Source of the DNA: Planctomycetota bacterium
GTDB taxonomy: Bacteria > Planctomycetota > SZUA-567 > H5-PLA8
Assembly (NCBI GenBank): GCA_038227875.1
Contig: JBBRPR010000032.1
Location: 1-64,000 of the forward strand
Direction: 5' to 3'
Length of the DNA stretch: 64,000 bases
The translations under genes and the position numbers were made by a program. Under the pieces are notes generated by a model. The model did no database searches. It saw only the letters and a list, made by a program, of their open reading frames with translations, and was not told the origin of the DNA. Below are positions 1,758 to 62,202 of this stretch, in pieces (within the stretch, counting starts at the first letter, position 1; the number at the start of each line of letters is the position of its first letter).

Positions 1758-3380
1758 TTAGTTGCTCAGCACCGAATACTTATACGCCAGCGCTTTCTCC
1801 TCGCCGGATTTCAGCGTGATCGTCCAGACCAGTTCGTTGCGGGGGTTGATGGCGTAGACGCCGTCTTCCAGCAGGCCTTTCTTGGGCTCGCCGTCGGCGC
1901 TGATCAGTTCGCCGGAGAATTTGCGCCGGATCACCACCTTTACGTCTTCCTTGCGGTGGTTGTTGATTTTCAGTTCTCCGTTGACCAGAACTTTGTGGTA
2001 CTGGGTGTTGCCGACCCAGACTTCTTCGCGCGCGCCGGGGATTTCGTGTTCGGAGTTGCTCGTGCGGATGCTCAGAGCGTGATTCACCTGGATGATCGTC
2101 TCTTCTCCAGTGTTGACCCAGCACGACATGCGCTGACCGTTGAAGTGATCGCCGGAGACCACCATCGCCGGCGCGGTGGTCATCGGAAATTTGAATGGGT
2201 TGCGGAAGCGTACGGCATCCCACGCGCCGTCGTCGTCGCTCTTGACGTTCTGAATCCGGCCGTACACGTCGCGCGAATCGGTGATCAGCCATTCGACGAT
2301 CCGTTCGTACTCGGCCTTCTGCCGGTCGATGGTCAGCGCCAGCGACTCGCCTTCCGCCAGGGTACGCGGACCGATGGGCTGATAATAGACATCGACGCCT
2401 TCGCCGGCCGGCACGGCCGACAAGTCCATGCCGCTGCGGTTTCCGACGCCGTTGGATACGCTCTGCTGATTCATGTAAATTCCGGGGTTGCCTTCGTTGC
2501 TCTGGGGCTGTTCGCGCACCTGCTGAAAGTACTGAGCCCAGGTCGTGCGCAGGGAGAGCGGGGAGGTCACGTGCCCCACCTGGACGCTGGGGTAGCCGGA
2601 GATCAGCTGCATCTCCGTGTTCTCCAGCGACGTCAGTTCGTTCTTGATCACAGCGGCCTGTTCGATGCTCAGTTGCTTGGGGTCGCTGATGTCGATGCGG
2701 TAATTCGGAGCCCACGCCAGGCCTTTGCTTAAATAAGTGATCGTAGCCGTGACGGGTTTGTCCGCTTCCTTCGCGGCTGTGAGCAACAGCACCGGCTTGC
2801 GGGTCTTCACGCCCTGGTCTTTGCCGTCGGCGTTGAGGTAGGCGATCATGCCGCTGTCGATGTACACGCGGCCGCCTTCCGTTTTCAGGATCAGGAAGCG
2901 ATTGGCGTTTGCCGCCGGCGGCGGGATTCCGCCCGGGTAATAGTTCCAGCCATATTGAGGCTGCTGATACGTCCGGTTCCACGCGTCAGCGGGTTTGGGT
3001 TCAGGCAACGCTTCCACCGTTCCTTCGGCCGGCGGAATCTGGCCATCGCGGAAGCGAATGGTGACATGCTTGCCGGCCAGCGATTTCTGGAAATCGAGAT
3101 TCGCGGCGGTGACCGGTTCCACGATCTCCCGTTCGGCCACGCGCGTTTCCACGGGAACGTCGCACTGCACCGACCACGTGCCGTGGATGGGCTCGGGTAC
3201 GTCGTCCACGGCGAACGTGCCCGCGCCCGGCAGCTTGACTTCGCGCTTCACGACGCACAGCCCGTTTTTGAAGAGGCCCACGGAGACGATGGTGCTTTTC
3301 AGTGGCGCCTCGTCGGCGGCGTGAGCCACAGTCAGTGCGCAGATTAGAACTGCGAGGATTCGAATCGATCGAAACAGCAT
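1758..3380 (-). CDS. Secreted DUF4139/DUF4140-like protein
   Basis: Signal peptide MLFRSIRILAVLICALTVAHA. SVGLFKNGLCVVKREV and TYLSKGLAWAPNYRIDI motifs. GAGGAG RBS upstream of the ATG at 3380. Confidence 0.75.
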   Translation of the reverse strand: MLFRSIRILAVLICALTVAHAADEAPLKSTIVSVGLFKNGLCVVKREVKLPGAGTFAVDDVPEPIHGTWSVQCDVPVETRVAEREIVEPVTAANLDFQKSLAGKHVTIRFRDGQIPPAEGTVEALPEPKPADAWNRTYQQPQYGWNYYPGGIPPPAANANRFLILKTEGGRVYIDSGMIAYLNADGKDQGVKTRKPVLLLTAAKEADKPVTATITYLSKGLAWAPNYRIDISDPKQLSIEQAAVIKNELTSLENTEMQLISGYPSVQVGHVTSPLSLRTTWAQYFQQVREQPQSNEGNPGIYMNQQSVSNGVGNRSGMDLSAVPAGEGVDVYYQPIGPRTLAEGESLALTIDRQKAEYERIVEWLITDSRDVYGRIQNVKSDDDGAWDAVRFRNPFKFPMTTAPAMVVSGDHFNGQRMSCWVNTGEETIIQVNHALSIRTSNSEHEIPGAREEVWVGNTQYHKVLVNGELKINNHRKEDVKVVIRRKFSGELISADGEPKKGLLEDGVYAINPRNELVWTITLKSGEEKALAYKYSVLSN

Positions 3381-22864: not shown

Positions 22865-23170
22865 TGCACTGGACCCTTTCACAGGTGGGGTGGGGGGTGG
22901 GTTAAGAACATGAATGGATGATCATTCCGATTTCCTGCATAAGAATCAAGCGCCCTTTGCACGCCGGGCCGCTTAGCCGAGGAGCAGGACTCAATCCTGC
23001 CAATTGCGATTGCCGCGGAAGAGCGACTTTTCAGCACGGCAAAATGAAGAAGCCCAGGTTTTCATGGCCCCAAAATTTGACTTCCCCCCACGCCGTGATG
23101 TATCTTTCCCCTGCCTTGCAGCGTACACGCAAGGTAGCCATGCCCCGCCGGGTGATTCACCTTGGTACGG

Positions 23171-23289
23171 GGCGGGCTGATCAGAGTACGAATCGGCACT
23201 GCCTCGTTTTTCCGTGAGGTGGTGTTTTCAGGTGTCTCGAGGCCCCGTGTGGCCTCGTCGCGCCGGGCGATTCCTCTGGTCAGTCCGCC
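23171..23289 (+). promoter_or_regulatory. Candidate structured 5' leader RNA of the ECF sigma gene
   Basis: A 16-bp basal stem plus a 6-bp stem enclose two hairpins. G-U pairs work only on the + strand. The structure ends just before the AAGGAG RBS. Confidence 0.5.
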
Positions 23290-23306
23290 TGACCAAGGAG
23301 ACGCCG

Positions 23307-23951
23307 GTGAACCCCACCAAGCCTTCCACTCAGACTGAAAACCCCGAATCTGCCGAAGCCGAAACTGCGCAGCTCGTCCGTGCCGCTCAGCACGGTTGTA
23401 CCGACGCGTTCAATCAACTGGCGACGCGCTTTGGAGCGTTCGTCCTCGCCCTCGCGCTCCGCAGACTCAAAAATCTTCATGACGCCGAAGATGAAGCGCA
23501 GAACGTGCTGACCGAAGCGTTTTTGCACCTTCACACGCTGCAGGATCCGACAAAATTCCAGGCATGGCTCAAGCGGCTCGTGCGCAACCGCTGCATCGAC
23601 CGCCTGCGCCGCAAGCGCAACGTCGAATCGCGCGTTGAATTTCACGAGGACGTCAGCCAGGCCGCGTGCGCAGCCCCGCGACTTCGCGCTGAGTCGAAAG
23701 CGCCGGAACTGGCCAGCGCCGTCACGCGGCTGAGCGTGCCGTTGCGCGAAACGCTGGAGCTCCACTATTTCCAGAATTGCTCGCTGAAAGAAATCAGCGC
23801 GCGCCTCAACGTCCCGCTCAATACGGTCAAGCGCCGCCTGCATGACGCGCGGCAGAAGTTGAAAGAAAACAAAGAGTCGTCAAAGAATTCTCAAAATCGT
23901 CCGAACCTTGATCCCGTCCCGTTCGACGTGAATAGCGAGCAAGTTGAGTAA
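23307..23951 (+). CDS. ECF-family RNA polymerase sigma factor
   Basis: DAEDEAQNVL..FQAWLKRLVRNRCIDRLR (region 2); SLKEISARLNVPLNTVKRRLHDAR (region 4); AAGGAG before the GTG at 23307. Confidence 0.92.
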   Translation: MNPTKPSTQTENPESAEAETAQLVRAAQHGCTDAFNQLATRFGAFVLALALRRLKNLHDAEDEAQNVLTEAFLHLHTLQDPTKFQAWLKRLVRNRCIDRLRRKRNVESRVEFHEDVSQAACAAPRLRAESKAPELASAVTRLSVPLRETLELHYFQNCSLKEISARLNVPLNTVKRRLHDARQKLKENKESSKNSQNRPNLDPVPFDVNSEQVE

Positions 23952-23954
23952 AGA

Positions 23955-24189
23955 AAAAACGGAGCCGGCATGAAACCCGGGGAATCGAGACGGTGCTGGA
24001 ATCGAAACCCGCACGGGACGCGCGCCTCTTGATGCGGCGACAGCACAACGCCGCGTCAAGCCGTCTTAAAAAGTTCAGCGGAGACGGTCCATCGCCGCCC
24101 GTTAGTCTACGGTGCTGGGAAGCAAACCGGGCGACGGTGTTCTTTCCGGCGCGGCGACAGCACAACGCCGCGCCGGACCGCTGTTTTTT
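23955..24189 (+). ncRNA. Two tandem ~118-nt structured RNA units (family unidentified) ending in a U-tract
   Basis: ACGGTGCTGG at 23990 and 24109. GCGGCGACAGCACAACGCCGCG at 24034 and 24151. Compensatory changes in the stems. Loop CAGCAC is complementary to the upstream GTGCTG. Confidence 0.6.
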
Positions 24190-24300
24190 GTAGTCCGGGC
24201 GGCTCGCCCGGAAATCGCAACCAAGTCCAAACAATTAACGCGCGGTCAAAAAAACCCAACTATCGCGACAGCGAAGAAACTCCGGGCGAATCCGGACTAC
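24190..24300. repeat. GTAG-type REP doublet (inverted pair), copy A
   Basis: GTAGTCCGGGCGGCTCGCCCGG at the left; degenerate CCGGGCGAATCCGGACTAC at the right. Confidence 0.7.
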
Positions 24301-24312
24301 ACAGGAGGACCC

Positions 24313-24825
24313 ATGTCCGCAACCATTGACTACAACAAAATTGTCCTGCAAATGGCTTCCAGCGATTGGCAGGTCCGCGAAGCCGCGCGCAAAATCCTGG
24401 AGCAAGGCGGGAAGGCCAGCTTGAGTGCCATGAAGCAGGCGTACGCGCATGCCGACTGGCGCGTGCGCCGCGAATGCTTGTCGTTCATGGATCACTTCGC
24501 CGACCAGACCTGCGTCAAGCTGATGGCCAAAGCGCTGAAGGACCCCAACGAAAGTGTGCGCCGCAGTGCGCTTCACAGCCTGCACTGCGACCGTTGCAAA
24601 CCGGCGCCGCTAACCTTCGACATGGTCCCCGAGCTGCTCGACGTCGCGCAACACGACCGCAGCCCGCGCATCCGCCGCAACGCCTTGGGTCTGCTTCAAA
24701 ACAAGAAACCCGACGCGCGGATCGTTCCCGTGATGCAGGCGATTCTGGCCGCGGAAAAAGACGAGCATGTGCGCAGACATGCCACACTCGCGCTCGAACG
24801 CCATCAATTAGCGGAGCCGCAGTGA
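24313..24825 (+). CDS. HEAT/PBS-lyase-like repeat protein with CDRC motif
   Basis: Repeats DWQVREAA, DWRVRREC, NESVRRSA, SPRIRRNA, DEHVRRHA; AGGAGG RBS. Confidence 0.85.
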   Translation: MSATIDYNKIVLQMASSDWQVREAARKILEQGGKASLSAMKQAYAHADWRVRRECLSFMDHFADQTCVKLMAKALKDPNESVRRSALHSLHCDRCKPAPLTFDMVPELLDVAQHDRSPRIRRNALGLLQNKKPDARIVPVMQAILAAEKDEHVRRHATLALERHQLAEPQ

Positions 24826-24843
24826 GAACAAGTCAGAGCAGAG

Positions 24844-25068
24844 CTACTTAGAAGGGGCGGGCGGGGGCGTCGCAGAAGTCGGGGGCGTTGCCGGGTTGGT
24901 CGGCATTCCGCTATCCTCATCGGGAGAATAGTAGGGCGACCCGGGGTCAGCCTGCTTGGGGTTGGTGCGCGGGACCAGCAGAAATCGCAGGGCCGTCAAG
25001 ATCACCGCAACGACGAGCAACGTCGCCACAACCCACTTTCCCGAGACGCCTTTATTTTCTGTCGCCAT
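24844..25068 (-). CDS. Small single-pass membrane protein with Pro-rich tail
   Basis: KWVVATLLVVAVILTALRFLL TM segment. Confidence 0.6.
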   Translation of the reverse strand: MATENKGVSGKWVVATLLVVAVILTALRFLLVPRTNPKQADPGSPYYSPDEDSGMPTNPATPPTSATPPPAPSK

Positions 25069-25221
25069 GTGCACTTCCAGCCATAAGTACGTAATCCACC
25101 GGCCGGCAGCATGCCACTAAGTAAAGGGGTAGCATAATGCATTTTCACCTTGAGACGCGACCTTGGCTGTACGATTGCTTGAGTAACACGTTTGTCGCAA
25201 AATAAGAAAGTCCGAAGGAAA

Positions 25222-44594: not shown

Positions 44595-44773
44595 GTAGTC
44601 CGGGCGTCCCGCCCGGTCAAATCTCAGAAAAGGCGAACAGGTCAAATTCGTTCGATAGACGAGCTATCGTGCGAAGCCATCGCCCTTCGCTCTCGCGGTA
44701 AAGAACGCGCCGCTCGGAAAGCATGTTGTTCTCGACGTGGATGAAGTCTGACCGGGCGGGACGCCCGGACTAC
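44595..44773. mobile_element. REPIN/MITE-like element: inverted GTAG REP pair with conserved spacer, copy B
   Basis: GTAGTCCGGGCGTCCCGCCCGGTC..GACCGGGCGGGACGCCCGGACTAC (24-bp perfect terminal inverted repeat). The spacer aligns by eye with 62028-62202. Confidence 0.75.
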
Positions 44774-62027: not shown

Positions 62028-62202
62028 GTAGTCCGGGCGGCTCGCCCGGTCTAACCTCGGAGAAAGCAAGCCGGGAATTTCGTTCGATGGTCTTGCTCTT
62101 TTGCGAAGCAAGCCGTTTGCTTTCGCGGTAGAGAAAGCGCTTCTCGGAAGCATACCCTTCCATACTTGGGCGTCGTCTGACCGGGCGAGACGCCCGGACT
62201 AC
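62028..62202. mobile_element. REPIN/MITE-like element, copy C
   Basis: GTAGTCCGGGCGGCTCGCCCGGTC..GACCGGGCGAGACGCCCGGACTAC, lying between convergent genes. Confidence 0.75.

Follow-up and report, generated by a model that had tools for sequence, protein, structure and literature searches.

The purine riboswitch (RF00167) is a three-way junction with a closing stem, P1, and two side-by-side hairpins whose apical loops are in contact, and in the guanidine-IV/mepA riboswitch the kissing of conserved loops on neighbouring hairpins decides termination. Flavivirus 3′ UTRs carry tandem duplicated xrRNA modules, hammerhead ribozymes are three-way junctions with loop-loop contacts, and the 3′ UTRs of regulator genes are a known source of small RNAs (sRNAs).

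Here we describe a tandem element, read on the + strand of a 64,000-nt stretch of planctomycete DNA (the whole of which is called the window below), that we class as a new structured RNA motif, restricted to one lineage and of a generally known kind. With the purine riboswitch it has in common a predicted three-way junction, loops that could touch, and a P1 stem beside an expression signal, but its helices are much longer (12 bp and more), its predicted loop-loop kiss is a 6-bp Watson-Crick helix rather than two pairs plus quadruples, its junction strands are unrelated and give no covariance-model match, and it is a tandem element of one lineage with no purine-metabolism gene downstream. Like the guanidine-IV/mepA riboswitch, it presents two adjacent hairpins with conserved loops able to kiss, next to a putative terminator; in this case, however, there is no model match, the loop sequences differ, no efflux or guanidine gene is present, the hairpins are enclosed in a three-way junction, of which there are two complete copies. 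The resemblance to flavivirus xrRNA lies in duplicated three-way junctions with predicted long-range loop pairing right after a stop codon, whereas the xrRNA context is viral/eukaryotic and both sequence and ring topology differ. As in intrinsic terminators and attenuators, a U-run comes after GC-rich pairing where a gene ends, but the stem that borders it is a 6-bp one closing a branched structure, a simple terminator scan of the + strand over 23000-25200 called nothing, half of the U-run is probably derived from a neighbouring repeat, and conservation reaches far beyond what a terminator needs. Finally, GC-rich palindromic hairpins in intergenic DNA recall REP/MITE elements, a true member of which adjoins the motif at 24190-24300, but the tandem units occur here only and their gene context is kept in the one homologue described below. 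In the purine riboswitch, guanidine-IV, and xrRNA comparisons, the computed test is the Rfam scan.

Results

The motif stretch, 23960-24189, is non-coding and separates the genes for an ECF sigma factor and a HEAT-repeat protein (Table 1). The sigma gene ends in a TAA at 23949-51, and the structured region begins 9 nt later; the HEAT gene is preceded by the ribosome-binding site (RBS) AGGAGGA and followed by genes for PKD and TPR proteins, and the two ORFs 5′ of the sigma gene gave no Pfam match. A protein search with the sigma factor as query returned at least 26 matches in the source genome, and among 16 genomes of the family neither the sigma factor nor the HEAT protein had a clear orthologue (best matches 42% and 37%, respectively). 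HEAT paralogues elsewhere do not adjoin ECF sigma genes, so the gene context gives no functional hint.

Table 1. Features of the motif and its surroundings (positions in the window)
Feature	Position	Strand	Description or basis
ECF sigma factor gene	23214-23951	+	245 aa; Pfam Sigma70_r2, Sigma70_r4_2, Sigma70_ECF
Unit 1	23960-24066	+	Three-way junction
Unit 1 closing stem (predicted)	CGG 23960-62 / CCG 24061-63	+	MFE fold
Helix A1, interrupted	23967-24026	+	MFE folds, window and L103
Helix A1 segments	23967-72/24021-26, 23976-79/24014-17, 23980-82/24008-10, 23985-88/24002-05	+	
Hairpin B1	24028-24060	+	12-bp stem, loop ACAGCACAA
Unit 1 kiss	GUGCUG 23993-98 (A1 loop) with CAGCAC 24041-46 (B1 loop)	+	Predicted
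Spacer between units	24067-24075	+	Read from sequence
Unit 2	24076-24183	+	Three-way junction
Unit 2 closing stem, P1 (predicted)	CAGCGG 24076-81 / CCGCUG 24178-83	+	
Helix A2	24090-24101 / 24128-24139	+	26-nt loop with ACGGUGCUGG
Hairpin B2	24145-56 / 24166-77	+	12-bp stem TCCGGCGCGGCG/CGCCGCGCCGGA, loop ACAGCACAA
Unit 2 kiss	24112-17 with 24158-63	+	Predicted
T6 run	24184-24189	+	Directly after P1 3′ strand
MITE-like dispersed repeat, hairpin ends	24190-24300	+	Apart from the tandem RNA units
HEAT-repeat protein gene	24313-24825	+	170 aa; Pfam HEAT_2, HEAT

An earlier note on this DNA had described two units about 118 nt apart; the shared sequence ACGGTGCTGG occurs exactly at 23990 and 24109, a spacing of 119 nt, and GCGACAGCACAACGC at 24037 and 24154. 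The 12-bp stems with an identical loop and differing but paired sequence are present as that note had described them, with CTTGATGCGGCG/CGCCGCGTCAAG (24028-39/24049-60, one U.G pair) forming the stem of unit 1. The upper six pairs, GCGGCG/CGCCGC, are common to both units, the lower six are wholly different (CTTGAT/GTCAAG in unit 1 versus TCCGGC/GCCGGA in unit 2), and the 9-nt loop is identical; as had been claimed, its CAGCAC is in both units exactly complementary to the GTGCTG upstream. A search of the 9.3-Mb source genome (59.6% G+C) for the combined pattern returned two occurrences, both at the motif, against 0 in a backwards control; likewise, among the 249 hairpins of the genome that have a stem of 7 bp or more and a CAGCAC-containing loop, the only two with a 12-bp stem and GTGCTG 33-35 nt upstream are the motif units. 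R1, a covariance model built from the two window units, found the same two copies and no others in the source genome, so the dispersed repeat that the earlier note had weighed against its own reading is not what the units are.

Single-motif matches elsewhere in the window (15891, and 41300 and 41088 on the minus strand) lack the partner element and were discarded. Another contig of the source genome, C70, carries on its minus strand (~3230-3290 in + coordinates) a hairpin whose loop ACAGCACAAC is that of hairpin B, directly 3′ of an apparent tRNA gene (judged by eye); GTGCTG is absent upstream, and the likeness is probably due to chance.

MFE folding of the window sequence alone makes each unit a three-way junction of a closing stem, a helix A, and a hairpin B, and the units of the homologue L103 adopt the same architecture (Table 1). 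The apical loop of helix A1, GACGGUGCUGGAA, holds the conserved ACGGUGCUGG. Two small hairpins proposed earlier, CCC-GCAC-GGG and CCG-GGCGA-CGG, are present as sequence but are better read as the 3′ arms of the A helices, which then enclose ACGGUGCUGG; in unit 2, the L103 substitution G24137A breaks the small hairpin but makes a U-A pair in helix A2. Similarly, both outer stems of the earlier note, ACGG/CCGT and CAGCGG/CCGCTG, can be located, but ACGG/CCGT competes with helix A1 and the kiss. The folding energies of the units are -42 and -57 kcal/mol, with z-scores of -1.16 and -3.44 for units 1 and 2 of the window and -2.92 and -3.94 for those of L103; for unit 2, in the window and in L103, 0 of 200 shuffled sequences were as stable.

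Pairing across the four units (two from the window, two from L103) is complete in stem B (48/48 cells), and 5 of its 12 pairs are changed on both sides. The 6-bp pseudoknot of the earlier note becomes a kiss between the A and B loops (i.e., GUGCUG with CAGCAC), with a computed duplex energy of -10.8 kcal/mol; all 24 cells are paired, but one pair alone varies, on one side only (A24042G in unit 1, U-A to U.G, pairing kept), and there is no double change. P1 and five of the six kiss pairs are invariant in a motif known from two genomes only. By a rough estimate, a 6-nt complement between these loops would arise by chance in ∼1-2% of cases per unit. The helices are thus well supported by the aligned units, and the kiss and closing stems are predicted features compatible with the data.

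The segment CCGUCU (24061-66, after hairpin B1) can also pair with AGACGG at 23988-93, in the helix A1 loop, or at 24082-87, in the unit 2 junction. All three segments are invariant in L103, and these alternatives could form a structure switch joining the two units.

The homologue came from exact-pattern scans that yielded 21 stretches from a genome collection and 30 from a metagenome collection, both requiring an exact 21-nt match, so that diverged relatives would be missed. When R1 was run on all 51 stretches it found one true homologue, L103, with units scoring 91.1 and 79.7 bits, the next locus reaching 21 bits. L103 is a 2040-bp metagenome contig with both units in tandem in the same gene context, collinear with 23062-24989 of the window at 82.5% identity; at the protein level, identity is 77% for the sigma factor and 89% for the HEAT protein. 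The whole motif, 23960-24189, is identical at 213/229 positions plus one 1-nt gap (unit 1, 88/100; spacer and unit 2, 24061-24189, 125/129), and its junction strands and loops are highly conserved. By comparison, four-fold degenerate sites are identical at 63/92 positions in the sigma gene and 56/69 in the HEAT gene, the next non-coding stretch (24218-24302) at 38/74 plus 12 gap columns, and the HEAT RBS region (24303-24312) at 10/10. Because its identity exceeds that of the four-fold sites and of the next non-coding stretch, the alignment indicates that the motif is under purifying selection.

The substitutions follow the predicted structure. L103 differs by 16 substitutions in 231 columns, 10 of them in paired columns, and no pair is broken; when the same substitutions were placed at random same-base positions, all pairs stayed intact in 9 of 100,000 trials, and 139 of 142 cells pair in the structure model. 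Double changes convert G-C to U-A in A1 (G23980T with C24010A) and U-A to C-G in B1 (T24030C with A24058G), while single changes turn U.G into U-A in B1 (G24055A) and A2 (G24137A), C-G into U.G in A1 (C23969T) and B2 (C24152T), and an A.C into G-C in A1 (A23970G). On the minus strand, pairs would be broken by three one-sided changes (two from C-G to U.G, and the U-A to U.G of the kiss), and the RNA is therefore read on the + strand, which is the strand of both genes. With conservation above synonymous sites and every predicted pair kept, the earlier proposal of a functional structured RNA is supported, and we hold it to be highly probable that the motif is a selected structured RNA.

A reading at the level of DNA, in which the motif consists of palindromes for a dimeric regulator or for recombination, or is a neutral leftover of tandem duplication, might seem natural for stems that are near-perfect palindromes about a fixed 9-nt centre, the more so since the minus strand of unit 2 gives a fold just as good (z = -3.91) and folding energy alone therefore does not separate its strands. 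However, the U.G-type changes are tolerated on the + strand RNA alone, the helix A arms and the loop-loop complementarity have no DNA-binding rationale, and the genome holds two copies with no integrase or transposase among the checked neighbours, while conservation above four-fold sites rules out the neutral leftover; we regard the DNA reading as very unlikely. A stabilising or exonuclease-blocking 3′-end structure, which would protect the sigma mRNA or define a decay fragment without any switching, has three points in its favour: the element is in tandem directly after a stop codon, the units and kiss have the high computed stability given above, and tandem knotted 3′ UTR modules have a precedent, by analogy, in flavivirus xrRNA. 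Such a structure would nevertheless need neither invariant loops nor a 97% conserved spacer and junction strands, and we consider this explanation distinctly unlikely.

Coding readings of the motif (a 66-aa ORF at 23993-24193, or an upstream extension of the HEAT frame) were rejected on a 1-nt indel and on open frames that differ between the two genomes; the substitutions track base pairing, not codons. A frameshift or read-through signal, an idea raised by a structure lying after a stop codon and an A-run, was likewise rejected, as the A-run lies past the stop and is not conserved in L103. The L103 sigma frame (406-1158) lacks the stop of the window and continues for 39 more codons through unit 1, which has a 1-nt deletion, to a TAA in the spacer; the missing stop is either real or an assembly error. 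Further upstream, the 150 nt 5′ of the sigma start (23062-23213) are 72-92% identical to L103 per 50-nt bin, and homology ends upstream of 23062; this stretch is possibly the promoter or leader of a conserved sigma-RNA-HEAT module. An ECF-type promoter in the conserved blocks was considered and set aside, since their spacing, judged by eye, misfits the consensus GGAAC-N16-17-CGT.

The T6 noted earlier after unit 2 is present, but it is not a clean terminator tail. Its last three T fit the start, TTtGTAGTCCGGGCG, of the consensus of the adjoining MITE-like repeat, and by this match they are probably the first bases of that repeat. The family has ends of the form TTtGTAGTCCGGGCG-NNN-CGCCCGG, with copies in the window at 24190-24300, 44595-44773, and 62028-62202. 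The copy adjoining the motif has GTAGTCCGGGCGGCTCGCCCGGA at its 5′ end (24190-24212) and, in decayed form, the inverted counterpart CCGGACTAC (24292-24300); GTAGTCCGGGCGGCTCGCCCGGA has 176 matches in the genome, and a 12-mer query gave 199 termini and 47 inverted pairs, mostly ∼114 or ∼176 bp apart. The 5′ hairpin of this copy is identical to L103 at 28/28 positions and the rest at 38/74, a contrast that could reflect co-option or gene conversion. P1 (6 bp, branched) abuts the U6, and hairpin B2 ends 6 nt before the U-run. Genome-wide, hairpins followed by T-runs are enriched (for stems of 8 bp or more, 410 versus 118 when A-runs serve as the control), and the T6 may be a terminator tail.

No Rfam 15 family reached its gathering threshold anywhere in the window, and a scan of 23850-24350 relaxed to E up to 10 gave 4 weak matches, all on the minus strand and none relevant (best score 26.9 bits versus a gathering score of 58), in keeping with the earlier statement that the motif matches no recognised family. 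A self-cleaving ribozyme in two copies was suggested by a junction with predicted loop-loop contact, as in the hammerhead, but none of the ribozyme families in Rfam (hammerhead, twister, pistol, hatchet, and others) matched at E up to 10, we recognised no conserved motif of a catalytic core, and known ribozymes have a different gene context; we find a ribozyme hardly credible here.

Searches for further relatives used samples of genomes, with filters in the model searches, and each set included the source genome. One unpublished genome counts towards the negative results below and supports no positive claim. In 101 genomes a loose pattern had two foreign matches, with the hairpin absent, and R1 gave no convincing match outside the source genome; at E up to 1, R1 gave weak matches in 42 of the 101, with loop or kiss in 0 of 11 aligned loci, and the best foreign match (33.8 bits) was rejected because it lies inside a long open reading frame. 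R2, the four-unit model, matched the source genome alone among 151 genomes of the phylum, and a BLAST search of the class (62 genomes) with the region returned only short chance matches and MITE-hairpin copies of the source genome. Instead of recurring across many genomes upstream of functionally related genes, the motif thus has a single homologue among the genomes and collections covered, L103 from the exact-pattern scans, whose neighbouring genes are recorded above. In a limited literature search we found nothing on such an RNA or on RNA-level control of ECF sigma loci, and the passages of PMC7826278 on HEAT and on Planctomycetes contain no HEAT-ECF link.

These results bear directly on a tandem ligand-sensing riboswitch controlling the HEAT gene, which would be a special case of the cis-acting role discussed below. 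A predicted three-way junction with loops that could kiss, as in purine riboswitches, speaks for it, as do the tandem arrangement, the highly conserved junction strands and loops, and the U-run after P1. Yet L103 is the only homologue found, with no convincing match outside the source genome in the 101-, 151-, and 62-genome searches, the motif is a single locus in its genome, the HEAT gene downstream encodes neither an enzyme nor a transporter from which a ligand might be guessed, and no Rfam aptamer matched (RF00167 included); we therefore rate a riboswitch as quite improbable.

A promoter scan found sigma-70-like sites at 23859-23888 and 23077-23106 and no promoter-like site between 23888 and 24366. 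Among four sequencing runs compared, the RNA run had a contig over the HEAT coding region alone and none on the motif, and a DNA run had an identical 219-nt contig over 23993-24211. The RNA contig, 157 nt from a wetland metatranscriptome run (24368-24524, one difference), suggests weakly that a close relative expresses its HEAT gene, with DNA carry-over as the alternative.

The site at 23859-23888 is one of the points that speak for a trans-acting sRNA of ∼230 nt, either released by processing of the sigma mRNA at its 3′ end or transcribed from a promoter of its own, in which the loops ACGGUGCUGG and ACAGCACAA would be seeds for target mRNAs or protein-binding sites. All four units have invariant sequence in their hairpin loops, the element ends in GC-rich structure and a U-run, and it would occupy a regulator-gene 3′ UTR, a location for which there is precedent. 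On the other hand, the two loop types are mutually complementary, which fits internal pairing better than free seeds, neither gene, sigma or HEAT, has CAGCAC or GTGCTG in its 5′ region, and the contig of the RNA run lies off the motif. We judge an sRNA to be unlikely.

Discussion

We conclude that the motif is a real, selected, lineage-restricted structured RNA that most likely acts in cis in the sigma-HEAT transcript. In the mechanism that we propose, the RNA at 23960-24189 would be made on the + strand within the ECF-sigma transcript, either as the 3′ UTR of the sigma mRNA or as the spacer of a sigma-HEAT operon. Each of its two modules would fold into a three-way junction of a closing stem, a helix A with the ACGGUGCUGG loop, and a 12-bp helix B with the ACAGCACAA loop, and the loops would lock through the 6-bp kiss. 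When module 2 is fully folded, P1 would stand directly before the U-run and transcription would stop or pause, so that the HEAT gene would yield little mRNA. The level of read-through would then be set by whatever loosens or tightens the kiss or the junction, be it a protein, a small molecule, or ribosomes translating the upstream gene.

Several observations favour a role in cis: the fold starts just 9 nt past the sigma stop, the promoter scan shows no promoter-like site between 23888 and 24366, conservation is poor over 24218-24302 but present at the HEAT RBS, P1 of unit 2 stands directly at the U-run, and the genome uses hairpin plus T-run signals. A cis-acting intercistronic attenuator governing read-through into the HEAT gene is accordingly our preferred reading, although we hold it tentatively and stop short of calling it probable. 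Against it, P1 with the U6 would be a branched, non-canonical terminator in which three of the six U derive from the repeat, the RNA run contig spans the HEAT coding region only, the comparison covers two genomes in which P1 and most of the kiss never vary, the HEAT paralogues are not beside ECF sigma genes, and the L103 sigma frame enters unit 1, which translating ribosomes would unfold.

It is also conceivable, if distinctly doubtful, that the motif represents an undescribed class, either a tandem kissing-loop three-way-junction RNA that gates read-through from a sigma gene to its partner gene on a signal or a bacterial counterpart of tandem exonuclease-resistant 3′-UTR modules. In the first case the signal would come from a small molecule or from one of the two encoded proteins, the sigma factor and the HEAT protein.

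The narrow distribution of the motif limits its general impact unless more distant relatives turn up. As a tandem three-way junction with a long predicted loop-loop helix, it is a tidy object for the study of RNA structure. ECF sigma factors are among the commonest signal-transduction devices of bacteria, and to our knowledge their control at the RNA level has been little described; an RNA fold that is duplicated, under strong selection, and placed immediately after a sigma gene is a testable candidate for such control.
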